From Escherichia coli (GTDB lineage: Bacteria; Pseudomonadota; Gammaproteobacteria; Enterobacterales; Enterobacteriaceae): DNA of 64,000 nucleotides. Each line of letters opens with the position of its first letter. Position 1 is the stretch's first letter. The notes beneath the pieces were generated by a model, which saw only the letters and a program-made list of their open reading frames with translations, made no database searches and was not told the DNA's origin. The stretch is taken from assembly GCF_044324875.1 (NCBI RefSeq), contig NZ_CP172186.1; one strand, given 5' to 3'. The position numbers and the translations under genes are program-made. Shown here piece after piece: positions 32,761 through 54,890 of this stretch.

Positions 32761-32781
32761 GTTCTCATCTCCCTTTTATTT

Positions 32782-34080: not shown

Positions 34081-34462
34081 AGTATGACGGAGACGGGCGG
34101 GCAACTGCCCGTTTCTTTTCCGGTAAAGGATGTCGCCATGCTCCTCTTTTTACTGCGCCGGCTGACGCGGCGCGGCATAAACGCTGCCTGTGGTCAGTGT
34201 CCCGCGTCCGGTGGGCACGGGACGGGCGCTTTTACCGCTCCCGGCTGGCGTCGGTGACAGTGTACGCCAGCCTGTCGCCCTTTTCTGATGAACGCCCTTC
34301 AAGCCGCTTTCGCGGCATAACCTTGCCGTCAAACAGACGACGGCTGCGGTATTCCACGGTCGGCCTGACCCGTTACCGGACGCGGTGAACAGCCCACAGG
34401 CAGCGGGGAACGGGCACCACAGGGGTGCCCTCCCGGTGCCCCCTGTAAGAGAAGGAGCTGTT

Positions 34463-36631: not shown

Positions 36632-36690
36632 TGACGCTGGCGGGGAAAAATCTCCGCCTTTTCCAGCCGGTCCCCGGAAAGAGCAAAAGG

Positions 36691-37030
36691 ATGTCGCCGC
36701 AGGCTCCGCTTTACTCGGCCATGCGGGGCATGGCCTTGTGGGTTTTCAGTTATGTGGCCTCAGCGTCGTGTGCGGGCTGTGCCGTGCCTCCATCGTAGCC
36801 GGGCTTCTGCGGGCGGGTTGCAAGGTAAGGTGAACCGCTGCGGTCACCCGGTCCCTCCTTCCCGTCTGCCGTGATTTTCCGGTCGTTCACCCGCTCAGAT
36901 TTCGCGGTCTCACCCTCCAACTCCCGCCAGCCGTGTGCGTCAGGCTGCGGCTTCCCTTGCGCCCTTGCAACCCTGCAGGCCCGGCAAAGATGGAGGCACG
37001 GCACCGCCCGGTGTCGCGGAATATGTGAAC
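36691..37030 (+). repeat. GC-rich direct repeat family A, copy 1 (candidate single-strand promoter/ssi element upstream of klcA)
   Basis: About 340 bp, roughly 95 percent identical to 48927-49265; dense inverted repeats. Confidence 0.6.
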
Positions 37031-37045
37031 AACGGAGGAAATCCC

Positions 37046-37471
37046 ATGCAGTATGCGAAACCTGTCACCCTGAACGTTGAAGAGTGCGACCGCCTTTCTT
37101 TTCTGCCTTACCTGTTTGGCAACGATTTTCTGTATGCCGAGGCGTATGTGTACGCGCTGGCGCAAAAAATGATGCCGGAATATCAGGGAGGCTTCTGGCA
37201 TTTCATCCGCCTGCCGGACGGTGGCGGTTACATGATGCCGGATGGCGACCGTTTTCATCTGGTCAACGGTGAAAACTGGTTTGACCGCACTGTGAGTGCT
37301 GATGCCGCAGGCATCATTGTTACGTCTCTTGTGATTAACCGCCAGTTGTGGCTGTACCACGACAGCGGGGATGCGGGACTGACACACCTGTACCGGATGC
37401 GTGATGCGCAGTTGTGGCGTCACATCGAATTTCACCCCGAATGCAACGCGATTTACGCGGCACTGGACTGA
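37046..37471 (+). CDS. klcA: KlcA/ArdB-family antirestriction protein
   Basis: MQYAKPVTLNVEECDRLSFLPYLFGNDFLYAEAYVY...; ATG 37046 with GGAGGA RBS. Confidence 0.8.
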   Translation: MQYAKPVTLNVEECDRLSFLPYLFGNDFLYAEAYVYALAQKMMPEYQGGFWHFIRLPDGGGYMMPDGDRFHLVNGENWFDRTVSADAAGIIVTSLVINRQLWLYHDSGDAGLTHLYRMRDAQLWRHIEFHPECNAIYAALD

Positions 37472-37517
37472 TTAACGGACGGGGCGGCAATGCCGCCCCT
37501 GTAAAGGAGACGAGAAC

Positions 37518-37937
37518 ATGTACTGTACTGTTAAAGAAATTATCCGCGAAGTGCTGAATACAGACGTGCCGGACAGTGAATGTGTTTTTGCCGTGGTGCT
37601 GACCCGCGGGGATGTGCGCCACATAGCCCGGGACTGGAACCTGTCAGACGATGAGCTGGAAACCGTCATGCAGCGGCTGGACGATGCTTTTGTATATGGC
37701 GCATGTGACAGAGTTGTTTCCGATATTGTCAATGAACTGATGGAGGAAAAGCGCGTAAACCGTCTTGTAACAGTTCCTGCGGTGCTGCTGGAAAAAGTGA
37801 TGGTGATGGCTGGTAGTGAAATTTATCGCCTCCATGCTGTAGGGAGCGAGAACGGGGGCGACGGTGACGCATTTGTCAGGGAAGAACGTGAGATTATGCG
37901 GGTAATGCGTCAGGCGCTGGACGGGGAGAACGGGTAA
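37518..37937 (+). CDS. Hypothetical leading-region protein (paralog of 35382-35816)
   Basis: 139 aa. Confidence 0.6.
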   Translation: MYCTVKEIIREVLNTDVPDSECVFAVVLTRGDVRHIARDWNLSDDELETVMQRLDDAFVYGACDRVVSDIVNELMEEKRVNRLVTVPAVLLEKVMVMAGSEIYRLHAVGSENGGDGDAFVREEREIMRVMRQALDGENG

Positions 37938-38128
37938 TGAATATCAGCACGGAAACCCGCGAAATTCTGCGTAATTACAGGGCCGTGATTAATGCGCGGC
38001 GTCGTGAAATGGGGCAGAAACCGCTCACCACCGCGCAGATTGTTGATGAAATCTGTGATTTTGTGGCGAATCAGCAGGCGGTTTTCCTCGGTGGTCACTA
38101 TATCCTTCAGGGCAGCAGGCACAGGTGA
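37937..38128 (+). CDS. Hypothetical small protein
   Basis: 63 aa; start overlaps the previous stop (ATGA). Confidence 0.45.
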   Translation: MNISTETREILRNYRAVINARRREMGQKPLTTAQIVDEICDFVANQQAVFLGGHYILQGSRHR

Positions 38129-38299
38129 TACAGGGGCAGGCGGTGGAGGCCGCCTGTCAGCCCGCGCGAAAACCCCTGGCAGGCTGGCGCCTGCCGGAAG
38201 GGATGCGGGCCACGCTGGCGCGTCGCCCGTTACCCTTCCTGTTGGTGACAGGCGTTGTTTCAGGAAGTACCTGTTACAGACCTGTCGTTAAAGAACCTT

Positions 38300-38870
38300 C
38301 TTACACATGCGCCCCTTCGGCTCCCGGCTGCCTGGCGGCATCCGGTCGTCAGGCCCGACTCCGACAGGCAGCTGCTGGCGCACCCGCCAGTCTCCGCCGA
38401 ACCCGCTGGCGCGGTTTCGGGCTGTCGCTACGGTCCGATGCGTGAAAACCCGGGCTTGCAGCGACCGTTCCGGTCGCGCCGCCTCTGTCGCGCCGTGACC
38501 TGCGCTCCCTGCACACCTGACGGTGTGTGAGGAAACTGCGCCTGATGGCGCAGCAGTCCTCCCTCCTGCCGCCACCTCTGCGGCCTGTTTCCCGCTGTGG
38601 ACTTTCCGGGGGGCAGACGTAACCCCCTCCCGTTCCATCTGTCCAGGGTGAGATGCACCGGCCACAAAATTTTTAGCCATGAACCCGGCAAAAAATTTTG
38701 CGTCCGCCCCCGGACAGCTGCCCCGTGAGGCGGTAAACGGGCCCCCATCGGAAAGGTCCACTGCGGGGAGAAACCCCTGTGAAGTGGACGGCAGGAGGAG
38801 CTTTCGCTCCTCTGAAGGGGCACATGAACGTCCCGTCGCCGGTATCCGGTTTATCTCACATCTTTCAGTC
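38300..38870 (+). repeat. GC-rich direct repeat family B, copy 1 (upstream of ssb)
   Basis: Shares long near-identical blocks with 49960-50500 and 53020-53370 (e.g. CTTCGGCTCCCGGCTGCCTGGCGGCATCCGGTCGTC, GGAAAGGTCCACTGCGGGGAGAAACCCC). Confidence 0.6.
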
Positions 38871-38881
38871 AGGAGGTTCTT

Positions 38882-38920
38882 ATGAGTGCACGTGGTATCA
38901 ACAAGGTCATCCTCGTCGGG
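38882..38920 (+). CDS. ssb: ssb exon 1 (codons 1-13: MSARGINKVILVG)
   Basis: ATG 38882 preceded by AGGAGG; coding sequence interrupted by intron beginning GTGCG at 38921. Confidence 0.75.
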
Positions 38921-41581
38921 GTGCGCCGTTGAAGCGCGGTGTTTTATGGAGTGTTGCCTGAAAAGCAACATGGCTTAGTGGTATAGCCATTGCATACTGT
39001 GGTTAGCCTTGCTTGGTAACAGGCTCGGAGATCCTGAAAAGGAGAGGTGAACATAGCATCCACAGAAAAGGGTGGTGAATATGGAAATCGTTATAAGTAT
39101 CACCATTCAATGCAAGATGTATATGGATAAACTGGGTTTGTTGAAGTCGAGATCTATGTGGGAAACAGGAAACCAATAACGCAGAACGATTGAAGCGTTA
39201 TTCCCGTACTAGCACAAGAAATCCGTCCGACGTTGATTGTGACCACTCTAACGGGCCAGCTATTGATGAAATAGTTAAACGATCGAAAGACATCCTAAGT
39301 ACATCGCATCTCCACACCGTGAAACTACGGGACTACCTAAACTGGATTTATACCCAGCATGGTAGCGGAGTCTCCATAGTACTCAAGGTCGGCCTGTAAT
39401 GGGTTCCGGCAGTCCGCATTATACGGAAGCAGCAAAGGTATAAATCAACCGGAAGGAAGATGAAAGCCTCACAGTGCTGCGGGGAAGGGAGACAGTTGTT
39501 AGATACATCAATCTCTAAGAGGAGGGTTAGCCAATGCTGCCTGATGAACTTGAGAAAAGATTAGATGGAATTGAGGATGCTTCAAAAAAAGGGTATCCAG
39601 TACGTAATCTATACAAAATTGCGTGTGAGCCCGGACTGTGGCTGCAAGCCTACGTGAATATACGGGCCAATGCAGGTGCACTGACTCAAGGTGTATCAAC
39701 AGATACCATTGATGGCTTTTCTATCGAAAGAGCAGAGAAGCTGGCAAAAACATTGCGGAGTAGAGAATACGTAGCGAAACCTGTACGCAGAGTTCAGATC
39801 CCAAAAAAGGACGGAAAAACCAGACCGCTGGGGATTCCAGGTGGAGACGATAAACTGGCGCAAGAAGTAGCAAGAATTATTCTGGAAAGGGTTTATGAAC
39901 CAGTATTCTCTGAACACTCTCATGGATTCAGACCAAAACGTTCGTGTGAAACTGCGCTCAGATCTATTCGTCCAGTCTGGAACGGAGTTAAATGGATCGT
40001 GGATGTTGATATCAAAGGTTTCTTTGACAATATCCCCCACAAACTATTGCTGAATACACTGGCAGAGAAAATTAAGGATAAGAATTTCCTGAAATTAATC
40101 GAACAGTGGCTGAAGGCAGGATATGTGGACAATTGGAAATACCATCGCTCATATTCTGGCACGCCACAAGGTGGGATAATTTCTCCCTTACTGGCAAATA
40201 TATACCTCGACAAACTGGACCGTTTTGTAGAACAGAATTTAATTCCTGCATATACAAGCGGTACAAAACGAAGAGCGAATCCAGATATGAACAGGCTGGC
40301 CCATAAGATTCATAAACTACGAAAGAAAGTAGACGGTATGGCAACTGATTCTGAATCAGAAAAAGAAGCCATAAAGAAAGAAATTGAACGACTGCTTGAA
40401 GAAAAACGTTCTATACCATCTCAGGTCATGAACGATCCAAACTTCAGGCGTATGTACTATGTTCGATATGCTGATGACTTCGTAATCGGTGTCATCGGCT
40501 CGAAGAAAGATGCTGAACATATATCAAGACAGGTCAGAAACTTTATTACTACTTCACTGGGATTGGAAGTTAATGAAGCAAAGACCAGGATCCGCCATAT
40601 CTCAGAAGGAGTTAATTTTTTAGGCTATGAAATCAGACAGGCAGATGCAAAGAAATTGCTGAAGCAGAAAATGCAAGGGCGGCACGCTCTCCGGAGATCC
40701 ACCACAGGAATTGTGCAGCTCTTCGTTCCTGACAATATAGCCGCTAAATTTTGTCACCAAAAGAAATATGGCTGTTATGAGAATGTGAAGGCTGTACATC
40801 GTTCAAGTCTACAAAATCTCAGTGAAGCTGAAATTGTTCTGACTTTCAACGCGGAAATGCGCGGATTGGCGAACTACTACAGTCTGGCGCTGGACATGAA
40901 ATATAAATTATCAAAATTATATTTCATATGGCAAATAAGCCTTTTTAAGACCCTGGCGAATAAACGACGTAGTTCAGTGAATAAAGTCGCCAAATCGCTA
41001 CGGCAAAATAATGGAGATCTGGCTATTACCGTTCAGGCCAAAAATGGATCCCGAAAGATTGAGGTTTTCAAACTCAAACATGTCAATCGCAACCGAACAA
41101 CGATTGTCGATACGGAACCGAGAACCGCACATATCACAACCCGCACAACAGAGATCATGCGTCGATTAGGGGCAAGGATCTGCGAGTATTGTGCGAAGAC
41201 TGGGCGCTGCGAAGTACATCATGTCAGAAAGCTAAAAGACCTGAAGAAAGGTCGTAAGGCCGGATATAAACCCAGCTTGTGGCAACTAATGATGATCGCA
41301 CGCCGCCGGAAAACGATGATTTTGTGCGCAAGTTGCCACGACAAGTTACATAGCGGAAAACTACCCGATTTGAGACAGGAAAAGGGAAGAATACTCCTGC
41401 AACCACCTGTCTCAAGCGGGGATTCTGCTAAATGAGTTTATCCCCAATAAGCTAGCAATGGAGAGCCGTATGCACTGAAAGGTGCACGTACGGTTCGGAG
41501 GGGGGGTAACGGTGATCTAACTCAAGATAAGCAGGACATATTCGCCATTTATCTTGAAAGACCACACGTACCCTACCCTAC
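38921..41581 (+). mobile_element. Group II intron (2661 bp) inserted in ssb
   Basis: 5' GTGCG, 3' ...AC; domain V-like hairpin GAGCCGTATGCACTGAAAGGTGCACGTACGGTTC at about 41462; encodes RT/maturase/HNH protein; flanking exons splice in frame. Confidence 0.85.
39534..41435 (+). CDS. Group II intron-encoded protein (reverse transcriptase - maturase - HNH endonuclease)
   Basis: 633 aa; RT motifs incl. YADDFVIGV; C-terminal HNH CEYC...HHV...CASCHDKLH. Confidence 0.9.
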   Translation: MLPDELEKRLDGIEDASKKGYPVRNLYKIACEPGLWLQAYVNIRANAGALTQGVSTDTIDGFSIERAEKLAKTLRSREYVAKPVRRVQIPKKDGKTRPLGIPGGDDKLAQEVARIILERVYEPVFSEHSHGFRPKRSCETALRSIRPVWNGVKWIVDVDIKGFFDNIPHKLLLNTLAEKIKDKNFLKLIEQWLKAGYVDNWKYHRSYSGTPQGGIISPLLANIYLDKLDRFVEQNLIPAYTSGTKRRANPDMNRLAHKIHKLRKKVDGMATDSESEKEAIKKEIERLLEEKRSIPSQVMNDPNFRRMYYVRYADDFVIGVIGSKKDAEHISRQVRNFITTSLGLEVNEAKTRIRHISEGVNFLGYEIRQADAKKLLKQKMQGRHALRRSTTGIVQLFVPDNIAAKFCHQKKYGCYENVKAVHRSSLQNLSEAEIVLTFNAEMRGLANYYSLALDMKYKLSKLYFIWQISLFKTLANKRRSSVNKVAKSLRQNNGDLAITVQAKNGSRKIEVFKLKHVNRNRTTIVDTEPRTAHITTRTTEIMRRLGARICEYCAKTGRCEVHHVRKLKDLKKGRKAGYKPSLWQLMMIARRRKTMILCASCHDKLHSGKLPDLRQEKGRILLQPPVSSGDSAK

Positions 41582-42064
41582 CGTCTGGGCAATGATCCGG
41601 AAGTCTGTTACATCCCCAACGGGGGCGCAGTGGCAAACCTGCAGGTCGCCACGTCAGAAAGCTGGCGCGACAAACAGACGGGGGAGATGCGGGAGCAGAC
41701 GGAATGGCACCGCGTGGTGCTGTTCGGCAAGCTCGCGGAAGTGGCTGGTGAATATCTGCGCAAGGGCGCGCAGGTCTACATCGAGGGGCAACTCCGTACC
41801 CGTAGCTGGGAGGATAACGGTATCACCCGTTACGTCACTGAAATTCTTGTTAAGACCACGGGCACCATGCAGATGCTGGGGAGTGCACCACAGCAGAACG
41901 CTCAGGCGCAACCGAAGCCTCAGCAGAATGGGCAGCCACAGAGTGCTGACGCGACGAAAAAAGGTGGCGCGAAAACGAAAGGCCGTGGACGTAAGGCCGC
42001 GCAGCCGGAGCCTCAGCAGCCGTCTGAACCCGCGTATGACTTCGATGACGACATTCCGTTCTAA
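41582..42064 (+). CDS. ssb: ssb exon 2 (plasmid single-stranded DNA-binding protein, codons 14-173)
   Basis: [35 protein letters not shown]...DDDIPF (acidic C-terminal tail). Confidence 0.85.
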
Positions 42065-42119
42065 CGAAAGACAGTGACAACCGCCCCGTCCAGTGCGGGG
42101 CATCACCGGAGAGATGAGG

Positions 42120-42353
42120 ATGAGCGAATATTTCAGAATACTTCAGGGACTGCCTGACGGTCCTTTTACCCGCAAACATGCCGAAGCCGTTGCCGCACAG
42201 TACCGGAATGTCTTTATCGAGGATGATCAGGGAACGCATTTTCGCCTGGTTGTCCGCAATAACAGTGGCCTGGTCTGGCGTACCTGGAATTTTGAGGACG
42301 GTGCCGGGTACTGGATGAACCATGCCATCCGTGATTTCGGCATTCTTAAGTAA
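42120..42353 (+). CDS. Hypothetical small leading-region protein
   Basis: 77 aa from ATG 42120 ([10 protein letters not shown]...). Confidence 0.55.
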
Positions 42354-42416
42354 GAGAGGTGCCGGACGGGAACGCGTCCGGCAGACATACAACCATCCCG
42401 GTCAAAGGAGAAATAT

Positions 42417-44375: not shown

Positions 44376-44426
44376 TGAACAACCACACCGCCCCGCCGGA
44401 GACGGGGCGGCAGCAAGGGAGATACC

Positions 44427-44864
44427 GTGATGAAAACTGAACTGACCCTGAATGCCCTGCAGTCCATGAACGCACAGGAATATGAAGATATCCGTGCTGC
44501 GGGAAGCGATATGCGCCGTAATCTCACTCACGAGGTGATGCGTGAAGTGGACGCACCGGCTAACTGGATGATGAATGGCGAGTATGGCAGTGAGTTCGGG
44601 GGCTTTTTCCCCGTCCAGGTTCGTTTCACGCCAGCCCACGAACGTTTCCACCTGGCATTATGTTCGCCGGGAGACGTCTCTCAGCTCTGGATGCTGGTTC
44701 TGGTGAGTGGTGGTGGACAGCCTTTCGCCGTCGTTCAGGTGCAACATATCTTCACGCCTGTCGCGATCAGTCACACGCTGGCGCTCGCCGCGACACTTGA
44801 TGCGCAGGGATACAGTGTTAACGACATCATTCATATTTTGATGGCAGAAGGAGGTCAGGCATGA
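44427..44864 (+). CDS. psiB: PsiB (plasmid SOS inhibition protein B)
   Basis: About 145 aa; stop TGA overlaps the psiA ATG (ATGA at 44861-44864). Confidence 0.8.
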
Positions 44865-44990
44865 GCGCATGCAAAATGGCATCTGAATCGATCGCAGTTT
44901 GGCATTCGAATCGATCATGATTTGGCATCCATCTCCGATCACAGTTTGGCATCACAATCGATCACGATTTGGCATGCTTCCGATCATTGA

Positions 44991-46637
44991 TTGGCATCCT
45001 GCCAGTCACTCCGGGAATTAACTCTTTTCACCACAGTCTCCATTGCCGTGTTTAAACCAGTGGAGACGTCAATGTCCAGAAAGAGAAAATCCAGGAGCAC
45101 TATGGAAACCTGTTTTAAGATCCTTCAGCTCAAGTTCGACAAGAAGCTGACTAACCGTTGTATCGGACTGACGTTACACATCAGCGCCTCAACCGTTTTT
45201 GAGGTTCTTGCCCGCTTCAAAGCCTCTTCTCTGTCATGGCCATTACCTGCTGATATATCCCATGACACGCTGGAGAAACTCATTTTTCCGCCCAAAGACA
45301 CCTTTGCATCAGAGCTTGTAATGCCTGACATGTTGTACTTCGATACGGAAATGAGAAAACCAGGTGTGACGCGGCAACTGTTGTGGATGGAATACAAGGC
45401 ACAGGCGGGTAACAAAGCGATGGGATACTCGCACTTCTGCCGTTGCTACCGGGAGTGGAAAAAAACGCGACGTCTCTCCATGCGCCAGGAGCATCGTGCC
45501 GGCGAAAAGCTTTTTATCGACTTCTGTGGTCCTACGGTTCCTGTTATTAATCCGGACACCGGTGAGATACGCCGCGTGGCAATCTTCGTGGCCGTAATGG
45601 GGGCGTCCAACTATACCTACGTTGAAGCGTGCGAAGGTCAGGACATGATGTCATGGTTAAATGCCCACAGCCGTTGCCTGACCTTCCTGGGCGGCGTACC
45701 GAAGCTGCTCATCCCCGATAACCTCAGAAGCGCAGTGAAAAAGGCCGATCGATATGAGCCTGTCATCAACGACAGTTATCAGGCACTGGCTGAGCACTAT
45801 GGCACGGTTATCATCCCGGCCCGACCACGCAAACCTAAAGATAAACCAAAAGCAGAAAACGGCGTCCTCATCGTTGAACGATGGCTTCTTGCCCGCATCC
45901 GTAATGAAACCTTCCACACGCTCAGGGCGCTGAATGCGCGCCTTAGGGAGTTACTGACAGACATGAATAACCGGCCAATGAAGGGGTACGGCAATCAAAC
46001 CCGTGCAGAACGCTTCCGCATACTGGATGCGCCAGCACTCTCTCCGCTGCCTCTGGCACCTTATGAATACACGGAATACAAAGCTGTGAAGGTTGGCCCT
46101 GACTACCACGTTGAATATGCCCGTCACTGGTACTCCGTTCCACACGAACTGGTCGGTCAGCGTCTGTCACTGAAGGCGGGGCAGTCGGTGGTACAGCTCT
46201 GGCACAAGGGGCAGTGTGTGGCGCAACATCCGCGCAGCACACATGAATATAAACACACAACCAATCCGCTTCACATGCCAGAGCGCCACCGGCAGCACGG
46301 GACATGGACACCGGAACGCCTGATCGAGCAGGGAAAACGTACGGGCCCGTCCACAGGCCGGGTGGTTGAATCCATGCTGAAGGCAAAACCCCATCCGGAA
46401 CTGGCTTATCGTGCAGTTCTGGGGCTGCTGGCACTTCAGAAAAAATACGGCCCGGAACGGCTGGAAAAGGCCTGTTACGTTGCCCTGCACTATAACGCCC
46501 CTGACAGACGCTTTATCGACAATCTGCTGCGTCACCATCGGGAGAACCTGGAGCTTCCATTATCCCGCCAGGGCGAACAACATCCGGCATATGCTTCAGA
46601 GCATGAAAACCTGCGTGGTCCGGGCTACTACCACTGA
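44991..46637 (+). CDS. istA: IS21-family transposase IstA (start codon uncertain)
   Basis: N-terminal HTH, DDE core (tracked ORF 548 aa). Confidence 0.85.
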   Translation: MASCQSLRELTLFTTVSIAVFKPVETSMSRKRKSRSTMETCFKILQLKFDKKLTNRCIGLTLHISASTVFEVLARFKASSLSWPLPADISHDTLEKLIFPPKDTFASELVMPDMLYFDTEMRKPGVTRQLLWMEYKAQAGNKAMGYSHFCRCYREWKKTRRLSMRQEHRAGEKLFIDFCGPTVPVINPDTGEIRRVAIFVAVMGASNYTYVEACEGQDMMSWLNAHSRCLTFLGGVPKLLIPDNLRSAVKKADRYEPVINDSYQALAEHYGTVIIPARPRKPKDKPKAENGVLIVERWLLARIRNETFHTLRALNARLRELLTDMNNRPMKGYGNQTRAERFRILDAPALSPLPLAPYEYTEYKAVKVGPDYHVEYARHWYSVPHELVGQRLSLKAGQSVVQLWHKGQCVAQHPRSTHEYKHTTNPLHMPERHRQHGTWTPERLIEQGKRTGPSTGRVVESMLKAKPHPELAYRAVLGLLALQKKYGPERLEKACYVALHYNAPDRRFIDNLLRHHRENLELPLSRQGEQHPAYASEHENLRGPGYYH

Positions 46638-46653
46638 CAGAAGGAACAACAGT

Positions 46654-47409
46654 ATGAGTGATAACCTGTTAAACAAACTGACCCAACTGAAACTCCCGGC
46701 GATGGCCGGGAGCCTGATACGGCAGCGGGAAACGCCTCAGACCTACGACGAACTGTCGTTCGAGGAAAGGCTGACGCTGCTGGTTGATGACGAGCTTCTG
46801 AGCAGGGAAAACAGCCGTGTGGCACGGTTGAGAAAAAATGCCGGCCTGAAATACCAGGCAACACCGGAAGGGCTGCGCTATCCGGCCTCAAGAGGTCTGC
46901 GGGCTGAACAGATGAGAGAACTGCTGAACGGCCACTACATAACCCACAGGAAAAACCTGCTGATAACCGGTCCGACAGGATGTGGCAAGAGCTGGATAGC
47001 CAATGCGCTGGGCGAACAGGCATGTCGACAGAAACACAGCGTCCGGTACTGTAGAACCGGGCGATTACTGGAACAACTGGCTCAGGGACGTGTTGATGGC
47101 AGCTGGCTGAAATATCTGAAACAGTTGCAAAAAATACAGGTTCTAATCCTGGACGATCTGGGGCTGGAACAGTTAAGTAACGCCCAGTGTAATGACCTTC
47201 TGGAGCTCATAGAGGATCGTTACGGACAAAGCAGCACGATAGTGGTAAGCCAGTTCCCGGTAGATAAATGGCATGGTCTGATGGAGAACCCAACAACAGC
47301 AGATGCCATCCTGGACAGACTGGTACATAACTCACACCGAGTGGTCCTTCAGGGAGAGTCACTGAGGAAAAATCCCCCGGTAGTGGAAAGCAGCGAAAAA
47401 ACGCGTTAA
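46654..47409 (+). CDS. istB: IS21-family helper ATPase IstB
   Basis: 251 aa; Walker A GPTGCGKS, Walker B VLILDDLG. Confidence 0.9.
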   Translation: MSDNLLNKLTQLKLPAMAGSLIRQRETPQTYDELSFEERLTLLVDDELLSRENSRVARLRKNAGLKYQATPEGLRYPASRGLRAEQMRELLNGHYITHRKNLLITGPTGCGKSWIANALGEQACRQKHSVRYCRTGRLLEQLAQGRVDGSWLKYLKQLQKIQVLILDDLGLEQLSNAQCNDLLELIEDRYGQSSTIVVSQFPVDKWHGLMENPTTADAILDRLVHNSHRVVLQGESLRKNPPVVESSEKTR

Positions 47410-47508
47410 AAAGCGGTAGAAAAAGTTAAGTTCCCGGTTGATCGAATGGATGCGAATCGCTGATCGGACTTCGATGCCAATCCGTGATCGAATAGAGCGG
47501 AATACGCA

Positions 47509-48225
47509 AGCGCACGTTCACGGGCACTGATCCCCCTCAGCGCAGAACAACAGGCCGCTATGCAGGCTGTGGCTGTCACCGAACAACGTCGTCGTCAGGG
47601 ACGCACACTTTCAGCATGGCCTTATGCCACCGCTTTCTTTCGCTGCCTGAATGGCAGTCGCCGGATTTCGCTGACCGATCTCCGCTTTTTTGCCCCTGCG
47701 CTGACGAAGGAGGAATTTCATGGCAACCGTCTCCTGTGGCTGGCTGCAGTGGACAAACTGATTGAAAGTTTTGGTGAAGTCTGTGTTCTTCCCCTGCCAT
47801 CCGATGCGGGGCATCGTTTGTTCCCGTCCGTTCCTTTTCGTGAAGGTGAGCGGCGTCGTCAGAAAACCACGCTGACAGAGCAGAAATACAGCCGCCAGCG
47901 GGAACGTGAGGCAGAACGACGGGAACGGGAATACCAGACATGTTTTGCTCAGGCGCAGATTGACCTTGCGTTTCATACTCCCGCCACGGTCGGAAGCTGG
48001 TTGTCCCGCTGGTCTGGTGTTGTTGAGGAGCATGATCTGGAAACGATTTTCTGGGGGTGGTGCGGGCGTTTTCCATCACTGTCATCATTTGACCGGTTTT
48101 TCTGGCAGGAGGAACCACTCTGGCGGTTGATTTTTGAAGCCGGTGAGGCCGGTCGTGGTGCACCGGTACAGGTACGTGCACTTGAGCAGTGGATGATCCC
48201 GAACAAGCTGGAGAACGTAATATGA
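47509..48225 (+). pseudogene. psiA: psiA, disrupted after codon 3 by the IS21-family element (an N-truncated product from ATG 47560 remains possible)
   Basis: ATG AGC GCA at 44861-44869 then IS; frame resumes SARSLAIPLSAEQQAAMQAV... Confidence 0.75.
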
Positions 48226-48818
48226 TGAAATCAGACGAAAAATACCAGGTTCCCGCGTGGATGCGACCTCTGTTGCCGTTGCTCTGCAACACCGGGGAGA
48301 ACGATCCGGAAGAACTGCTGAATGATACAGAAACCACTGCCAGTGCGAATGTTGTCCGTTATGTGCTGATAGTTGCTGTGCGGTCGCAGGTTGATCTGCT
48401 GCAGCTTCTGTACAGGAAAGGGCTGTTGCGCACAGAGATACCAGGTGGCTTTTCACCGGAAGAAGCGCAGGAACTCCTGGATAATCTGGTGCGCAGCCAT
48501 ATCAGCAGGGCGCTGTCGGGTGAGCGAATGGCAGCCCGTGACAGGAATGCCGATCTGGCCTGGATTCGACAGCAACTGGTCGATGCCGCCTGGTTTGTCC
48601 GTGCCACACTGGAAGCGCATGGGATGAGCGTCGGAAATGAGAGTCCCCCTGCTCAGCCGGAGACAATGCCGGACATACAGACACGGGAACTGGTGATGTT
48701 GATCAAGCGACTGGCATCATCGCTGAAAGCGGTGAAACCGGACAGTTGTGTGGTGCGTGAAGCGCAGGACTGGCTGCGCGACAGAAAACTTGTGAGCATC
48801 ACGGATGTTCTTCGGTGA
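48222..48818 (+). CDS. Hypothetical leading-region protein
   Basis: 198 aa from ATG 48222. Confidence 0.55.
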   Translation: MMKSDEKYQVPAWMRPLLPLLCNTGENDPEELLNDTETTASANVVRYVLIVAVRSQVDLLQLLYRKGLLRTEIPGGFSPEEAQELLDNLVRSHISRALSGERMAARDRNADLAWIRQQLVDAAWFVRATLEAHGMSVGNESPPAQPETMPDIQTRELVMLIKRLASSLKAVKPDSCVVREAQDWLRDRKLVSITDVLR

Positions 48819-48926
48819 ACCAGTGGAGGTATGCTTGAGGAGCAGGGACATGCCGGCCATGATCGTTTCGTTCCAGGGGTGGTCTGGAGATCATGCGGCG
48901 TGTCCTCTGCACTCGCCGGAATAAGG

Positions 48927-49265
48927 ACGTCGCCGCCGGCTCCGCTTTTACCCGGCCATGCGGGGCATGGCCTTGTGGGTTTTCAGCTCTGTGGCCTCAG
49001 CGTCGTGTGCGGGCTGTGCCGTGCCTCCATCGTAGCCGGGCTTCTGCGGGCGGGATGCAAGGTAAGATGAACCGCTGCGGTCACCCGGTCCCTCCTTCCC
49101 GTCTGCCGTGATTTTCCGGTCGTTCACCCGCTCAGATTTCGCGGTCTCACCCTCCAACTCCCGTCAGCCGTGCGCGTCGGGCTGCGGCTTTCCTTGCGCC
49201 CTTGCATCCCTGCAGGCCCGGCAAAGATGGAGGCACGGCACCGCCCGGTGTCGCAGAACATGTGA
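48927..49265 (+). repeat. GC-rich direct repeat family A, copy 2 (upstream of ardA)
   Basis: Near-identical to 36691-37030. Confidence 0.6.
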
Positions 49266-49282
49266 CTATGGAGGATTCGGGA

Positions 49283-49783
49283 ATGTCTGTTGTTGCACCT
49301 GCTGTATACGTTGGAACCTGGCACAAATATAACTGCGGAAGCATCGCCGGCCGCTGGTTTGACCTGACCACGTTTGATGATGAACGCGATTTTTTCGCCG
49401 CCTGCCGTGCCCTTCACCAGGATGAAACCGATCCGGAACTGATGTTTCAGGATTATGAGGGTTTCCCGGGGAATATGGCCTCTGAATGTCATATCAACTG
49501 GGCCTGGGTTGAAGGCTTCCGCCGGGCACGGGATGAAGGCTGCGAAGAGGCTTATCGTCTCTGGGTGGATGATACCGGTGAGACGGATTTTGACAGCTTC
49601 CGCGATGCCTGGTGGGGCGAGGCTGACAGTGAGGAGGCTTTTGCGGTTGAGTTCGTCAGTGATACCGGCCTGCTGGCTGACGTGCCGGAGACGGTGGCGC
49701 TCTATTTTGACTATGAGGCGTATGCGCGGGATTTATTCCTGGACTCCTTCACCTTTATTGACGGTCATGTGTTCCGTCGGTGA
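49283..49783 (+). CDS. ardA: ArdA antirestriction protein (DNA mimic)
   Basis: MSVVAPAVYVGTWHKYNCGSIAGRWFDL...; 166 aa, very acidic; GGAGGA RBS. Confidence 0.85.
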   Translation: MSVVAPAVYVGTWHKYNCGSIAGRWFDLTTFDDERDFFAACRALHQDETDPELMFQDYEGFPGNMASECHINWAWVEGFRRARDEGCEEAYRLWVDDTGETDFDSFRDAWWGEADSEEAFAVEFVSDTGLLADVPETVALYFDYEAYARDLFLDSFTFIDGHVFRR

Positions 49784-49959
49784 TTTACTCCCCCGCTCCG
49801 GCGGGGGTATGGCCTGCCGGGCCGCCGGAAAACCCTGGCAGGCTTACGCCTGCCTGAAATACAGGAGGGCCGCGCCTGCGGCGCTGCCCTTCCTGCCCGT
49901 CATGGTGTGAGGCATTTTTCTGTTTTGTCGTTTCTGTTGTTCTGATGCCCGGAGGCGGG

Positions 49960-50500
49960 GACACCCTTCGGCTCCCGGCTGCCTGGCGGCATCCGGTCGT
50001 CGGCCCGACTCCGACAGGCAGCTGCTGGCGCACCCGCCAGTCTCCGCCGAACCCGCTGGCGCGGTTTCGGGCTGCCGCTACGGTCCGATGTCTGAAAAAC
50101 CAGGCCTGCAGCGACCGTTCCGGTCGCGCCGCCCCTGTCGCGCCGGAAACGGCGCTCCCTGCACACCTGACGGTGTGTAAGGCCACTGCGCCTGATGGCG
50201 CAGTCAACCCTTCCGCCGCCACCCCTGCGGCCTGTTTCCCGCTGTGGACTTTCCGGGGGCTGAAGCGGCCACAACACGGGGCAGCCGTCCAGGGGAGAGA
50301 TGTACCAGCCACAAAACTTTTTGCCGCAGGCGTCAAAAACTTTTGCGTCTGCCCCCGGACAACTGCCCCGTGCCGTGGCAGTCGCTGCCCCATCGGAAAG
50401 GTCCACTGCGGGGAGAAACCCCGAAGAAGTGGACGGCAGAAGGGGCTTTCGCCCCTCCGGGGGAGCAACCGGTCGGCCCGGCGACCTGATTCAGCAGAAG
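49960..50500 (+). repeat. GC-rich direct repeat family B, copy 2
   Basis: See 38300-38870. Confidence 0.6.
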
Positions 50501-50511
50501 GAGACGTTTTC

Positions 50512-50946
50512 ATGACAGTCAGCAGCACGATTTCCGTTTTTTGCCGAGACGGGGTGTTCCGTACCGTTTACTGCCACCTGCACGGTGAGCCGACCTGGAA
50601 CGGTCGCATCCTGCATACCCACTATGCCACCGGTCAGCTGGCCGAAGCCCTGGTTGAACACGGAGATATCCGTTGCCTCGGTCCCCGTTGCGACAAACCC
50701 GCCGGGCATACGCTTCAGAACCCGGTGGACGGTGTGACGGCTTATTACGGACGTGACAGTGGTTTCCGGATGGACAGTGAGGCGCGTGAGTACCGTTCTT
50801 TCAGGGAGGCTATTGCCACTGAAAGCACTGAAGAGGTGCGCTTCCATTATGTGTTCATCGACGGCTACTGGAAGGTGATGTACCGCACGCCGGAAGGCTG
50901 GAAGATGAAAGCGCTCGCGCTGGCACTGCGTCGCTGTCCGGAATGA
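50512..50946 (+). CDS. Hypothetical leading-region protein
   Basis: 144 aa from ATG 50512 (MTVSSTISVF...), AGGAGA RBS; the tracked 333-aa ORF upstream part lies in repeat B. Confidence 0.6.
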   Translation: MTVSSTISVFCRDGVFRTVYCHLHGEPTWNGRILHTHYATGQLAEALVEHGDIRCLGPRCDKPAGHTLQNPVDGVTAYYGRDSGFRMDSEAREYRSFREAIATESTEEVRFHYVFIDGYWKVMYRTPEGWKMKALALALRRCPE

Positions 50947-51037
50947 AAAAAAGCAGGGCGATAAACCCTGCCTCTCTCCGCCGCTGCTTCCCGGCCAGGA
51001 AGAGCGGCAGTCATCAACAACATAAGGAGAAATATTT

Positions 51038-51304
51038 GTGAGACCATCAATTATCTTCGCAACCGCCGAGTATGTAAAGCGTCTGCGTGAAGAGTGCCTG
51101 CGGGAGAATAAACCCCTGCACCGCCATACCCGCTTCAGACGTCAGGAGCTGGCACAGGATGAGATTAACCCGGACGTCCTGGCGATGAGCGGTCATATCG
51201 CCAGACGCTGCAGTGAGCAGAAGCGGGTGCGTATCCCCGCCATGAAAGTCAGCGAATGGGGCCACCTGCTCCGCGCGCTTGAAATTGAACGGGTCTGTCA
51301 CTGA
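51038..51304 (+). CDS. Hypothetical protein
   Basis: 88 aa; GGAG RBS. Confidence 0.5.
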   Translation: MRPSIIFATAEYVKRLREECLRENKPLHRHTRFRRQELAQDEINPDVLAMSGHIARRCSEQKRVRIPAMKVSEWGHLLRALEIERVCH

Positions 51305-51368
51305 TTAACCCTTGCCGTCTGCCTGTGCAGGCGGCAGGATACGTTCAGACATCTCACCAGGAGGAACC

Positions 51369-52247
51369 GTGAGTAAGAAGAAAAACACCACAACGCCCAC
51401 GCCGCATGATGCCGCGTTCCGGTCGTTCCTGGCGAATCCCGACGTTGCCAGGGATTTTCTGGAGTTGCATCTTCCTGCGGAGTACCGGCAGTTGTGCGAC
51501 CTGTCCACCCTGAAGCTGGAACCCGCCACCTTTGTTGAGCCGGACCTGCATCAGTACGCCAGCGATATCCTCTGGAGTGTGAAAACCACCGGGGGTGAAG
51601 ACGGCTATGTTTATACGCTCATCGAGCACCAGAGCACCGAAAATCTGTACATGCCTTTTCGCATGTTACGTTACAGTGTGGCGGCGATGCAGAGACATCT
51701 GGAGCAGCACAAAACGTTGCCACTGGTCATTCCGGTGCTGTTCTATCACGGTGAGCGCAGCCCGTACCCGTACAGCATGAACTGGCTGGACTGTTTTGAG
51801 AATCCGGCACTTGCGGCTAAAATATACACAAAGCCGTTTCCGCTGGTTGATATCACTGTCGTTGATGACAATGAAATCATGAACCATCGCCGGATGGCCG
51901 CACTGACGCTGCTGATGAAGCATATCCGCCATCGTGACATGATGGAGCTGCTGGACAAACTCCCGCAGGTCATGGTGGAAATTTCAGACGAGCAGGTGCG
52001 TGTTCTGATTCATTACATCGTTAACGCAGGGGACACTGTATCACCGGAATTTATGCGGGCGCTGGCCGAGCGCCTGCCGCAGCATGAGGATAAACTGATG
52101 ACAATCGCAGAACGTCTTGAGCAGAAAGGTGCGCTTGAAAAAGCCCTGGCCATTGCGCGTCAGCTTCAGAAAATGGGGATGACACCTGAGCAGATTAAGC
52201 AGGCCACCGGACTTTCCGAAGCTGAACTGAAAAAAGTCATTCACTGA
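51369..52247 (+). CDS. Rpn/YhgA-like recombination-promoting nuclease family protein
   Basis: GTG 51369 after AGGAGG; N-terminal HDAAFRSFLANPDVARDFL...; about 292 aa. Confidence 0.65.
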   Translation: MSKKKNTTTPTPHDAAFRSFLANPDVARDFLELHLPAEYRQLCDLSTLKLEPATFVEPDLHQYASDILWSVKTTGGEDGYVYTLIEHQSTENLYMPFRMLRYSVAAMQRHLEQHKTLPLVIPVLFYHGERSPYPYSMNWLDCFENPALAAKIYTKPFPLVDITVVDDNEIMNHRRMAALTLLMKHIRHRDMMELLDKLPQVMVEISDEQVRVLIHYIVNAGDTVSPEFMRALAERLPQHEDKLMTIAERLEQKGALEKALAIARQLQKMGMTPEQIKQATGLSEAELKKVIH

Positions 52248-52308
52248 TGAGAGCATCACAGCCCGGCAAAATGCCGGGCTTTTTGCCAGCAGGAGCAGAG
52301 CAAACAGC

Positions 52309-52527
52309 ATGACGATTGCAGAACGTCTTATACAGAAAGGTTTCGACGAGGGTTTTAAAGAAGGTTTTAAACAAGGTTTTAAACAAGGTTTTAAACAAGG
52401 AGCTCTTGAAGTGGCGCGGGAAATAGCCTGCCGGCTTCGGGATATAGGCTGGTCGCCGGAACGGATTCAGGAGGTCACGGGACTTTCCGGTGAAGAACTG
52501 AAAAAGCTGTTTCCTGATGAGCAGTAG
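52309..52527 (+). CDS. Small ORF resembling the C-terminal tail of the Rpn-like protein, with GFK(E/Q)GFKQ tandem repeats
   Basis: MTIAERLIQKG...GLSGEELKK parallels ...MTIAERLEQKG...GLSEAELKK of the upstream gene. Confidence 0.4.
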   Translation: MTIAERLIQKGFDEGFKEGFKQGFKQGFKQGALEVAREIACRLRDIGWSPERIQEVTGLSGEELKKLFPDEQ

Positions 52528-52557
52528 CCTGGCATTCAGCCAGGCTGTGAATCACGC

Positions 52558-52809
52558 TCACACATCCTCTGCCGTTTCCCCCAGTTCATTTTCCAGTCGC
52601 CTGATGATATCTGCCTTACGCATCCCCTGCATGTGAGGCAGCAGGTCACGGACTGAAAGTGCCTGGGTGGTCCTCCAGACGGTGACGTCCACCTGTTCCG
52701 CATTTTCCCAGGCGTGCCATGTTCTCTGCGTCACGCCAAATTCTCTGGCCGCTTTTTCGCGTGACCAGAGCATGCTTTTTCGCCAGATTCGCAGTTCCCA
52801 TCCGGTCAT
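52558..52809 (-). CDS. HTH (XRE-like) DNA-binding protein
   Basis: 83 aa; AAREFGVTQRTWHAWE HTH-like segment; twin palindromes upstream. Confidence 0.5.
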   Translation of the reverse strand: MTGWELRIWRKSMLWSREKAAREFGVTQRTWHAWENAEQVDVTVWRTTQALSVRDLLPHMQGMRKADIIRRLENELGETAEDV

Positions 52810-52823
52810 AAAACACCTTTGAA

Positions 52824-52909
52824 AAAGTGAAAAAACTTCACTTTATTTTATCATCACAATTGCCAAATCAGCGCGATAAATAAGTGTAAAAAAGTGAAGA
52901 AATTTCACT
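52824..52909. promoter_or_regulatory. Two palindromic operator-like sites AAGTGAA-N5-TTCACTT upstream of the HTH gene
   Basis: 52824-52842 AAGTGAAAAAACTTCACTT and 52891-52909 AAGTGAAGAAATTTCACTT. Confidence 0.5.
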
Positions 52910-53019
52910 TTTTTTGGTTGTAAATGTCGTGCGGTTTTCTCTGTTTTCACCTGTGCGGGAGTGGTGTGCCAGTGACCACCACATGCCATTGTTGTGCCGT
53001 CGTTTTTCTTCAGTCGCGC

Positions 53020-53370
53020 CGGATGCGGCGCTCCCTGCACACCTTACGGTGTGTAAGGCCACTGCGCCTGATGGCGCAGCTGCCTCTGCCTGTCTGCCGC
53101 CGCACTGCGGCCTGTTCTCCGCAGACGGACTTTCCGGGGGTACATACACGACCACATCCCGTTTCAGTCGTCCAGGGGAGAGATGTACCAGCCACAAAAC
53201 TTTTTGCCGCAGGCGTCAAAAACTTTTGCGTCTGCCCCCGGACAACTGCCCCGTGACGTGGTGAGCGTCCCCCGTCGGAAAGGTCCACTGCGGGGAAATC
53301 CCCGAAGACCCGGACGGCAGAAGGAGCTTCGCTCCTCCGGGAAATGACCTGGCTGACCCGGCAGTCGTGA
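53020..53370 (+). repeat. GC-rich direct repeat family B, copy 3 (partial)
   Basis: See 38300-38870. Confidence 0.55.
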
Positions 53371-53388
53371 CGATGAGGAGACAATGTG

Positions 53389-54699: not shown

Positions 54700-54890
54700 A
54701 TCAAAAACTGACTCCTGGCAGGGCTGCGCCCTGCCTCTGCCGTCTGCATAAGACTATGATGCACAAAAATAACAGGCTATAATGGCATGAAAAACGGGAC
54801 AGGATGTGTAATCGTATAACCGCGCACGCACGGCTATACGATTACCACCTGGTCAGGGCTTAGCCCCGACACCCCGGTAAGGAGCAGACC
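54700..54890. other. oriT-like region upstream of nikA
   Basis: 11-bp inverted repeat GTAATCGTATA / TATACGATTAC (54808-54845) immediately upstream of nikA-nikB. Confidence 0.5.

Follow-up and report, generated by a model that had tools for sequence, protein, structure and literature searches.

Probable single-stranded DNA promoters, orthologous to published elements, in the leading region of an IncI-complex plasmid from Escherichia coli

Introduction

The closest known relatives of the elements considered here include Frpo1 (ssiD) and Frpo2 of plasmid F (Masai & Arai 1997; Couturier et al. 2023), together with ssi1-3 of the IncI1 plasmid ColIb-P9, which also belong to class 1, or ssp1 (Bates et al. 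1999; Nasim et al. 2004). In F early expression is abolished by deletion of Frpo1 or Frpo2 (PMC9849209), and the ssp2 element 5' of yfgB, a klcA homologue, was found to be a replication roadblock (bioRxiv 2026.01.09.698686). Elements upstream of klcA and ardA were named class 2 ssDNA promoters by Wen et al. (NAR 2025; PMC12672017), who mapped their starts by 5' RACE and observed by RNA-seq up to ~500-fold induction in transconjugants. In the same study the pESBL leading region was described as carrying six promoters of three classes with coordinated early expression, class 3 (ssp3) being defined 5' of M.EcoGIX, and the 5' RACE mapping and RNA-seq induction extended to class 1 (ssi1-3/Frpo) and class 3. 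Here we examine a 64,000-nt stretch of E. coli plasmid DNA (contig NZ_CP172186.1; hereafter the window), for which a preliminary description had proposed that GC-rich direct repeats upstream of leading-region genes are promoters that fire on the incoming single strand.

Results

Two repeat families lie directly upstream of leading-region genes

The direct repeats of both families are confirmed, at similarities far above those expected by chance (94.9% identity in family A; 80-86% in family B). Alignment of the five copies placed two in family A and three in family B, as had been described, and BLAST among the window repeats revealed no similarity between the families and no further copies within the 64 kb. 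Family A comprises 36687-37039 (A1) and 48923-49275 (A2), which are 94.9% identical over 354 nt by BLAST and share an ungapped core (36710-37009 and 48947-49246) at 97% identity over 300 nt. Family B comprises ~38313-38865 (B1), 49964-50500 (B2) and 53010-53375 (B3); B1 and B2 are 86% identical over 501 nt (38313-38812 vs 49964-50457), and 53010-53341 of B3 matches the 3' two thirds of both at 80-85% identity over ~333 nt. B3 is shorter in that it is without the ~175-bp 5' module of B1 and B2, which in B1 occupies 38313-38485 on the minus strand, outside the classical 328-nt ssi, and has a conserved two-hairpin core at ~38441-38513. A conserved two-hairpin module was seen to adjoin class 1 elements.

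All five copies share the orientation of the plus-strand genes, again as described, and each ends 7-45 nt 5' of a start codon. A1 precedes klcA (37046-37471, ATG 37046), encoding a KlcA/ArdB-type anti-restriction protein (PDB 2kmg, E 1.9e-18; PHROG anti-restriction family), and A2 precedes the anti-restriction gene ardA (49283-49783, ATG 49283; PDB 2w82, E 3.5e-7; PHROG 2059; annotation of near-identical plasmids). B1 is followed by ssb (ATG 38882), B2 by a 144-aa ORF of unknown function whose orthologues are called 'PndC' in some records (50512-50946, ATG 50512) and B3 by a DUF4942-family, methyltransferase-like ORF (53389-54237, ATG 53389), all on the plus strand. Likewise, in 16/16 other plasmid loci with both classes, the class 1 and class 2 elements point the same way. 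The long GC-rich ORFs that had been dismissed in the preliminary description (e.g. 38288-38971 and 49785-50528, both minus) overlap the repeats in different frames and strands, and are therefore best read as spurious.

The oriT core lies on the minus strand at 54790-54875 and consists of GGGGTGTCGGGGCTAAGCCCTGACC and a 17-bp inverted repeat, followed 8 nt on by CATCCTG/T. The nick, marked by the slash, is predicted between 54800 and 54799, an assignment made by comparison with the R64 and RP4 nick regions (Furuya & Komano 1991). Since these repeats and CATCCTG/T are on the minus strand, the transferred strand is the template of the plus-strand genes.

The transferred strand folds into conserved hairpins

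A long inverted repeat lies within each of the five copies, in keeping with the inverted-repeat richness noted earlier. In a GC-corrected folding scan of both strands (300-nt sliding windows over 30-56 kb) the top peaks were the three B copies, B1 highest, with the minus strand 14-17 kcal/mol more stable than the plus (-108.2 vs -93.9 for B2; -90.4 vs -73.2 for B3), while the asymmetry of family A was modest (3-6 kcal/mol). The main hairpins lie at 38562-38798 in B1, 50208-50444 in B2 (fold -109.9 kcal/mol) and ~53091-53323 in B3, and the B1 ssi folded with its 5' module (38300-38880) reached -171.5 kcal/mol (z = -10.2). The A1 hairpin, also on the minus, transferred strand, has its main stem at ~36775-37010 and folds at -91.7 kcal/mol (z = -5.6).

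Homologues from Enterobacterales plasmids show compensatory changes that support both long hairpins. Over 38 pairs in family A, 94.5% of cells were paired compared with 32-44% when the pairing was slid, and compensatory changes occurred at 16 pairs as against 4-8, values reached in 0/500 shuffles. Over 61 pairs in family B, 80.4% of cells were paired (38-51% when slid), with compensatory changes at 26 pairs (13-22) and in 76 cells (20-58). Such covariation reflects a selected structure, and the distinction between DNA and RNA rests on strand bias. This matters for the view that the structure acts in RNA, as an mRNA leader or an intergenic element such as an attenuator, processing site or terminator, with ordinary promoters driving transcription: covariation alone is blind to RNA versus DNA, and upstream read-through would transcribe each whole element. 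However, a sense RNA would have the plus-strand sequence, which folded worse than the transferred strand in 49/49 homologues (27/27 of family A, 22/22 of family B), and wobble positions in paired columns favour the minus strand, with G.T to A.C ratios of 42:6 and 111:56, respectively. Moreover, an Rfam search of the elements returned no family match, and in a terminator scan neither long hairpin was a complete terminator, only short local stems inside the repeats being terminator-like. We thus regard an RNA role as very improbable.

The hairpin arms carry promoter-like motifs

Conserved -35 and -10 motifs at promoter spacing are found on the non-template arm of the long hairpins, as a single-strand promoter reading had led the preliminary description to expect. 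The 3' arm of family A reads cTTGnnn, 15 nt (20 in this window) and GGCTAMRRT; cTTG and GGCTAMRRT are conserved over 27 homologues, conservation of the -10 region being partly circular because the alignment was gathered with a pattern spanning it. Read from the sequence of the minus strand, the A1 non-template arm (36792-36823) presents -35 TTGCAA (36823..36818), a 20-nt spacer and -10 TACGAT (36797..36792). From the fold, the plus-labelled template arm would span 36966-36998, with 36966-36971 opposite the -35 and 36986-36991, AAAGAT in duplex form, mismatched with TACGAT. As the -10 thus faces ATCTTT in the hairpin, it would be partly pre-melted, and an RNA start is predicted from the fold at ~36998. 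A2 has -35 TTGCAT (49060..49055) and -10 TACGAT (49034..49029), with a predicted start at ~49235.

In family B the 3' arm reads CCCTGGACA, 13-14 nt, GTG, N, hexamer, GCCCC. Behind an A/T-rich apex come a near-invariant TGGACA, the 13-14 nt and a near-invariant TG (extended -10), after which a degenerate hexamer lies in a mismatched bubble closed by a GCCCC/GGGGC clamp. This class 1 hexamer is weak and variable, being TTACGT, CCGCTT and TCGTGT in the three window copies. B1 has TGGACA at 38645..38640 and TTACGT at 38622..38617 on its non-template arm, with a predicted RNA start at ~38747. A working Frpo2-acrIIA4 construct of Samuel et al. has the 3' arm trimmed to its apical ~80 nt, and the class 1 promoter is therefore placed near the apex. 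The exact boxes and start sites in the window are deduced from fold and motif, and our box assignments may be off.

Some other plasmid groups place their leading regions under repressor control, and the repeats sit exactly where promoters would be expected, which together would suit conventional double-stranded promoter/operator regions duplicated for control by a common repressor. We consider this even less probable than an RNA role. On neither strand did any of the five repeats yield a linear sigma-70 consensus promoter; the duplex form of family A (TTGCAA, 15 nt, AAAGAT) is a poor promoter, and it is the opposite arm that carries the conserved hexamers, directed away from the gene in duplex terms. 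In addition, published induction drops as the DNA becomes double-stranded (PMC12672017).

Each copy is a positional orthologue of a described element

Comparison with F and ColIb-P9, which the preliminary description had recommended, was informative for every copy: each is the positional orthologue of an element characterised or mapped as an ssDNA promoter. B1 (38485-38815, minus), B2 with its 5' module (49964-50500, minus) and B3 (53010-53375, minus) correspond to ssi3, ssi2 and ssi1 of ColIb-P9 at 98.8%, 93.3% and 98.6% identity, with the same downstream genes, orientation and 328-nt unit, and B3 is 99.6% identical to its pESBL counterpart. Samuel et al. list the same ssi elements among their ColIb-P9 sequences, B1 being 'ColIb-P9 Frpo3' (AJ238399:11381-11711) and B3 'ColIb-P9 Frpo1' (AJ238399:1459-1787). 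B2 differs from ssi2 in spacer and -10 region (CCGCTT vs TTACTC), and the host plasmid belongs to a different IncI-complex type from ColIb-P9, its best matches being typed IncK2/Z and IncI-gamma/K1. Family B resembles Frpo1/2 of F in that the 3' arm of its transferred-strand hairpin bears an A/T-rich apex, CCCTGGAC, a TG motif and a GCCCC clamp, and in having the conserved flanking module; F Frpo2, like B1, is located 5' of ssb. However, family B and the F elements align only in blocks (70-95% over 70-150 nt), and the hairpin is ~300 nt in F but ~240 nt in family B, the basal part not being common.

The minus-strand class 2 elements A1 and A2 share 87-92% identity and gene position with known class 2 orthologues (A1 88% with those 5' of klcA in both pESBL and F; A2 91% and 92% with those 5' of ardA in pESBL and ColIb-P9), as well as the branched hairpin, cTTG, GGCTAMRRT and a GGCACGGC base. 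They differ in that the spacers are 20 nt (non-template) and 15 nt (template) here but 15 and 20 in F, pESBL and ColIb-P9, the 5-nt bulge thus lying on the other strand, and in having -10 TACGAT instead of TAAGAT.

Long multi-copy inverted repeats might also be selfish or neutral sequences (miniature inverted-repeat elements, recombination relics) with no role in expression, and 9.7 kb of an IncI leading region has in fact been deleted by recombination between such repeats (PMC3817090). Set against this are positions fixed beside the same genes across F, IncI1 and this plasmid, a strict orientation without copies elsewhere in the window, and compensatory changes with invariant promoter-like motifs across genera; of all the alternatives we hold this one the least credible.

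A sixth hairpin and an interrupted ssb operon

The five copies had been taken as the full set, which overlooked a sixth hairpin at ~34140-34445 on the minus strand (-105.1 kcal/mol, z = -5.9). It is a scan peak unrelated to families A and B, its strand asymmetry in the 300-nt scan is small (-91.9 vs -89.1), and no convincing promoter hexamers were found in it. A DNA methylase gene (34463-35146; family NF010253, E 1.5e-147) lies 3' of it, and in pESBL the orthologous methylase gene is immediately preceded by a segment with 98.6% identity to 34000-34420, making the hairpin a candidate class 3 (ssp3-type) promoter. The idea of a regulon coordinated by five copies in two families matches what was reported for pESBL, apart from the number, which there is six promoters in three classes.

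B1 does lie directly before ssb, as had been stated, but the preliminary description missed that a 2661-nt group II intron interrupts the gene following codon 13. Exon 1 (MSARGINKVILVG; 38882-38920) is followed by the intron (38921-41581; beginning GTGCG, with ltrA at 39534-41435 and domain V/VI at 41461-41581) and exon 2 (RLGNDPEV...DDDIPF; 41582-42064), all on the plus strand. The ORF at 41592 was rejected as second exon, being out of frame; the true exon is in the frame of ORF 41630-42064. Unlike in ColIb-P9, then, the ssb 3' of ssi3 holds an intron, and psiA is interrupted by an IS21-family element, so that the ssi3 regulon may not work here as it does in ColIb-P9.

Discussion

Considered together, the repeats, their orthology, the identity of the transferred strand, its biased folding, the covariation and the motif conservation observed here suggest, with a probability that we put at about 88%, that the five repeats and the 34140-34445 element serve as single-stranded DNA promoters in the leading region of an IncI-complex plasmid. 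The elements have already been published and are not new, and the earlier interpretation is supported. Promoter function in this plasmid would be transferred from the orthologues, in which others have demonstrated activity on ssDNA, mapped the starts of transcription and observed induction in transconjugants.

By this reading the minus strand would be nicked at oriT (~54800) and enter the recipient 5' end first, with the elements arriving in the order 53, 50, 49, 38, 37 and 34 kb. Before complementary-strand synthesis each would form a long imperfect hairpin on the transferred strand whose stem mimics duplex promoter DNA, the 5' arm serving as template and the non-template 3' arm bearing the -35 and -10 read from apex to base. 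Host sigma-70 RNA polymerase would initiate within the stem, exit at its base and transcribe the adjoining plus-strand genes, namely klcA, ssb-parB-like-psiB-(psiA), ardA, two operons of unknown function and probably the methylase operon. Complementary-strand synthesis would then flatten the hairpin, removing the promoter and ending expression. In sso of rolling-circle plasmids and the filamentous-phage minus-strand origin, too, host RNA polymerase takes the folded single strand for a promoter-like duplex. Unlike the present elements, those origins give only a primer for DNA synthesis, without gene expression; no sequence similarity to them was seen, and none was expected (for the comparison see PMC7690428).

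That the elements might chiefly be replication signals, class 1 as primer-giving initiation sites and class 2 as barriers timing complementary-strand synthesis, is unlikely, if less so than the other alternatives. The very name ssi denotes single-strand initiation, Frpo was first found as a priming signal, reviews and the 2026 preprint describe priming from ssp1/Frpo and stalling at ssp2 in F, and the hairpins are far longer and more stable than a promoter requires. Such a role is, however, an addition rather than an alternative: the elements stop just short of start codons with a ribosome-binding site, the transferred strand is always the template, and in orthologues induction of the downstream genes proceeds from mapped starts, and their expression is lost when the element is deleted. 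By analogy with F, the class 1 elements probably also prime complementary-strand synthesis and the class 2 elements delay it. During conjugation, promoters of this kind in IncI and F plasmids activate the genes for anti-restriction, SSB and SOS inhibition on the entering strand.

Two repeat families orthologous to known single-strand promoters

The preliminary description had reported two families of long direct repeats 5' of leading-region genes, and both the repeat finder and BLAST bear this out. Family A comprises A1 (36687-37039) and A2 (48923-49275), which by BLAST are 94.9% identical over 354 nt and share a 300-nt gap-free core at 97%, while in family B the copies B1 (38313-38812) and B2 (49964-50457) are 86% identical over ~500 nt and are joined by a shorter third copy, B3 (53010-53341), at 80-85% identity over ~333 nt. 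The two families are unrelated, with no BLAST match to each other, and no additional copy of either was found by BLAST elsewhere in the 64-kb window. Every copy stops just 5' of a + strand start codon with a ribosome-binding site, namely those of klcA (ATG at 37046, after A1), ssb (38882, after B1), ardA (49283, after A2), an ORF of 144 aa (50512, after B2) and a DUF4942-type ORF (53389, after B3). Because an NCBIfam search left KlcA, ArdA and the tested ssb-region ORF without a name, we turned to the PDB and PHROGs, where solved-structure matches and anti-restriction families confirmed the identities of KlcA and ArdA. Thousands of conjugative plasmids from enterobacteria match this region. 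Those that match best over the full length are typed IncK2/Z and IncI-gamma/K1, with a MOBP relaxase and MPF_I, and the gene order here is that of the IncI leading region up to a mobC-like gene, nikA and nikB.

BLAST further showed that all five copies are positional orthologues of elements in the plasmids ColIb-P9, pESBL-EA11 (hereafter pESBL) and F. B1, B2 and B3 are 98.8%, 93.3% and 98.6% identical to ssi3, ssi2 and ssi1 of ColIb-P9, respectively, and coincide with AJ238399 positions 11381-11711, 4353-4678 and 1459-1787 (326-331 nt), three sequences listed as known Frpo/ssi elements by Samuel et al. 2024, who found >13,000 Frpo homologues; B1, B2 and B3 are therefore ssi3, ssi2 and ssi1. 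In F the B copies have blocks in common with Frpo2 (5' of ssb) and Frpo1/ssiD (5' of ygeA). A1 and A2 are 87-92% identical over 354-430 nt to elements at the same gene positions, upstream of klcA and ardA in both pESBL and ColIb-P9 and upstream of the F homologue of klcA, and on reading the listed sequences we found that the candidates Frpo' 4, Frpo* 1 and Frpo* 3 of Samuel et al. 2024 resemble family A. In pESBL six operons are induced, each with a large hairpin 5' of it (Wen et al., NAR 2025, PMC12672017); the hairpins fall into class 1 (ssi1-3/Frpo), class 2 (klcA and ardA) and class 3 (M.EcoGIX), with each of the six starts located by 5' RACE (PMC12672017). As judged by homology to a characterised member, family B is class 1 (Frpo/ssi/ssp1), and by homology to the pESBL and F elements family A is class 2 (ssp2), the names ssp1-3 being those of a 2026 preprint (bioRxiv 2026.01.09.698686), according to which ssp2 holds up complementary-strand synthesis until it is resolved by UvrD. 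By analogy with its orthologues, for which this has been shown, family B would direct sigma-70 transcription from the ssDNA form only and give transient expression after transfer. Family A may likewise share the mapped start, induction in transconjugants and roadblock to the complementary strand that are reported for pESBL and F.

Folding and covariation on the transferred strand

The oriT region lies on the minus strand at 54875-54790, with the IncI-type repeat GGGGTGTCGGGGCTAAGCCCTGACC, a 17-bp inverted repeat and CATCCTG|T 8 nt beyond, features which we take to be an R64/RP4-type nick region. Since they are on the minus strand, this is the transferred strand; the nick region is at ~54800, nikA and nikB are beyond it, and all downstream genes are on the plus strand. 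The minus strand would enter 5' end first, from ~54799 towards lower coordinates, and is the template of all + strand leading genes. Family B thus lies within the leading region, and its downstream genes have the transferred strand as template.

When folded as minus-strand ssDNA, B1 together with its 5' module (38300-38880) reaches -171.5 kcal/mol (z = -10.2) and A1 reaches -91.7 kcal/mol (z = -5.6), and the family B hairpins contain 76-98 nested pairs. In a 300-nt sliding scan of 30-56 kb the top peaks after correction for G+C were B1, B2 and B3, where the minus strand was 14-17 kcal/mol more stable than the plus strand, with smaller peaks at A1 and A2 and a further one at 34150-34449. Folding energies above the G+C expectation were also seen at 30850-31199 (A/T-rich), at 32700-32999 (5' of a DUF1281 gene) and at 52800-53099 (just 5' of ssi1).

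Additional support comes from covariation, in which each consensus was compared with controls whose pairing partners had been shifted. For family A (27 sequences, a consensus hairpin of 38 pairs) 94.5% of cells were paired versus 32-44% in the shifted controls, with compensatory changes in 16 pairs versus 4-8, and 0/500 shuffles reached the observed values. RNAalifold did not recover the long hairpin from the class 1 MAFFT alignment, and we therefore used the consensus of individual minimum-energy folds; for family B (22 sequences, 61 pairs) 80.4% of cells were paired versus 38-51%, with compensatory changes in 26 pairs versus 13-22 and in 76 cells versus 20-58. Moreover, the transferred strand folded better than its complement in 27/27 family A homologues (mean -8.8 kcal/mol) and 22/22 family B homologues (mean -10.2 kcal/mol), and in paired columns G.T outnumbered A.C by 42:6 and 111:56, respectively. 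This strand bias and G.T excess argue that the structure under selection is the transferred DNA strand and not the sense RNA. Rfam returned no match to the repeats at gathering or permissive thresholds. The models predict a long imperfect hairpin on the transferred strand for family B and a large stem-loop on the same strand, with promoter boxes in its stem, for family A. Taken together, orthology to characterised elements, folding, covariation and strand bias uphold the earlier reading of the repeats as single-strand promoters, and the family-wide covariation and strand-bias tests lend independent computational support to the published model.

Class 2 elements in other genomes

We searched a single genome of each species with a degenerate pattern based on the -10 region of family A and obtained 27 loci, mostly on plasmid contigs of Pantoea, Erwinia, Klebsiella, Rahnella, Lelliottia, Mixta, Entomohabitans and Escherichia. 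Most of these also have class 1 elements, which were co-oriented with class 2 in 16/16 loci; a strict class 1 regular expression recovered close relatives alone. The match in L009 (Streptomyces) was dismissed as chance, and L026 (Lachnospiraceae) was left out as incomplete, its 3' 120 nt alone matching at 90%. The loci L007, L008, L010-L012 and L018 bear labels that include Streptomyces morookaense, Oscillospiraceae, Oscillibacter and Collinsella, the last three being those of L010-L012 and L018. L008, L010-L012 and L018 are 90-99% identical to the window family A element; L008, with a Streptomyces label, matches E. coli plasmid DNA at 92% identity, and the element of L007 is almost the same as that of Lelliottia (L023). 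All six loci probably reflect contamination of the assemblies with enterobacterial plasmid DNA.

Predicted promoter anatomy

In none of the five repeats did we find a linear sigma-70 consensus promoter. Read from apex to base, the 3' (non-template) arm of A1 on the minus strand (36823..36792) carries cTTGCAA (36823..36818), 20 nt and GGC-TACGAT (36797..36792), followed by GGAGGCACGGC, and the template arm on the plus strand (36966-36991) carries TTGCAA (36966-36971), 15 nt and AAAGAT (36986-36991), such that the putative -35 would be paired and the -10 would lie opposite mismatches. In the duplex form of family A the spacer measures 15 nt and the -10 is poor. The 27 family A homologues conserve both cTTG and GGCTAMRRT, the latter being partly forced by the search pattern. 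In F (scan locus L003, 6444-6728), pESBL and ColIb-P9 the 5 extra spacer nt of class 2 are on the template arm (15 vs 20), whereas the window lineage has them on the non-template arm (20 vs 15); the bulge is retained between lineages but on the opposite strand.

In family B the 3' arm runs from an A/T-rich apex through a 10-nt bulge to the near-invariant CCCTGGACA, followed by 13-14 nt, a near-invariant GTG, 1 nt, a variable hexamer (TTACGT in B1) and CA/CT before a GCCCC clamp. TGGACA and the TG 13-14 nt downstream are near-invariant and adjoin mismatches, and the putative -10 hexamer is weak. We infer from this arrangement a -35, a 16-17-nt spacer and an extended -10, all predicted boxes. 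The working Frpo2 construct of Samuel et al. 2024 keeps only the apical part of a family B-type 3' arm, which fits the apex-to-base direction. A promoter running instead from base to apex, using TTGACG near the base of F-type hairpins, was dropped, as the functional Frpo2 construct is without the partner arm and the closest -10-like motif is 32 nt off. Placing the class 1 -10 in the conserved 10-nt bulge (CATTTAC) left no -35 at a usable distance, and this bulge is missing from Serratia/Pantoea-type members, while a -35 at TTGTGG right after the A/T tract had no conserved partner. Starts are predicted at ~36998 (A1), ~49235 (A2) and ~38747 (B1).

A sixth element 5' of the methylase gene

The preliminary description missed a sixth element at ~34140-34445 on the minus strand, directly 5' of a DNA methylase gene (34463-35146, family NF010253). 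It folds to -105.1 kcal/mol (z = -5.9), shows a weak strand bias, the two strands folding almost equally well, and matches the equivalent segment of pESBL, which lies 5' of the methylase gene there, at 98.6% identity. We identified no -35/-10 hexamers within 34140-34445. This candidate is probably the published class 3 (ssp3) promoter, as found 5' of M.EcoGIX in pESBL. In related records the segment overlaps an ORF called as a hypothetical protein.

A two-hairpin module beside class 1 elements

B1 and B2 carry a ~175-bp 5' extension outside the classical ssi, the core of which is a two-hairpin module of ~70 nt at 38441-38513 (B1) and 50091-50163 (B2), on the 3' side on the transferred strand. 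In its second hairpin the centre, CCGGAACGG, is invariant and the stem varies by compensatory substitutions; pairing holds in 92.1% of cells versus 24-40% in shifted controls, with 15 compensatory cells versus 0-7. The module adjoins class 1 elements in many Enterobacterales plasmids, namely F and IncI plasmids and those of Klebsiella, Enterobacter, Lelliottia, Entomohabitans and Pantoea (for instance L003 8160-8260 and 13549-13649, L025 2717-2816 and 5953-6052, and L013 6280-6379), and its primary sequence, at 80-95% identity, varies less between these plasmids than the promoter hairpin does. The ssiD fragment of F deposited as D90178 does not include it. It matched no Rfam family, and our literature search returned neither a description of it nor a paper printing its sequence. 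That the module is an independent single-strand signal is a tentative proposal that we consider rather unlikely to hold. It may be a primase/primosome entry site or a protein-binding site, and the latter would link complementary-strand synthesis to promoter shut-off. Of all the parts described, this flanking module alone may be worth further study.

An intron in ssb and insertion sequences

B1 was described as lying upstream of ssb, and the gene does begin at 38882; what escaped notice is a group II intron within it (38921-41581, + strand, 2661 nt), which starts with GTGCG, encodes ltrA (39534-41435) and has a domain V/VI match at 41461-41581. Directly 3' of ssi3 (B1), the intron splits ssb after codon 13 into exons at 38882-38920 and 41582-42064 (+ strand). 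The ORF at 41592 is out of frame with ssb, and related plasmids label an out-of-frame 'ssb' ORF here. A group II intron moved to the same ssi3-operon position in another plasmid (Benz et al. 2023), and re-occupation of the same site is reported from experimental evolution (PMC10104558). Transcripts made from the single-strand promoter when the plasmid reaches a new host would also include the intron reverse transcriptase gene.

An IS21-family element (44950-47500; istA-like 44991-46637, istB-like 46411-47409) sits just after psiB, near the psiA 5' end, and the ORF at 47560-48225 may be the remainder of psiA. This insertion would lengthen or break the ssi3 operon. Rfam ALIL pseudoknots, frameshift signals of the IS3 family, matched at 2625-2741, 15489-15575 and 59190-59276, which points to IS3-family insertion sequences elsewhere in the window.

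Implications

Both the observation in the preliminary description and its interpretation restate published knowledge of ColIb-P9, F and pESBL. The finding is already known, of low interest as a discovery and useful for annotation; its value for the window lies there, and current understanding is unchanged by it. Six regulatory features should take the place of the GC-rich "hypothetical proteins" called over the repeats, and ssb should be entered as a gene split by an intron. The elements, being direct repeats, are substrates for leading-region deletions as well. With them a conjugative plasmid can switch on its genes for anti-restriction, SOS inhibition and DNA protection within minutes of arrival, while not yet double-stranded, and through this early expression they help decide whether resistance plasmids become established in new hosts.
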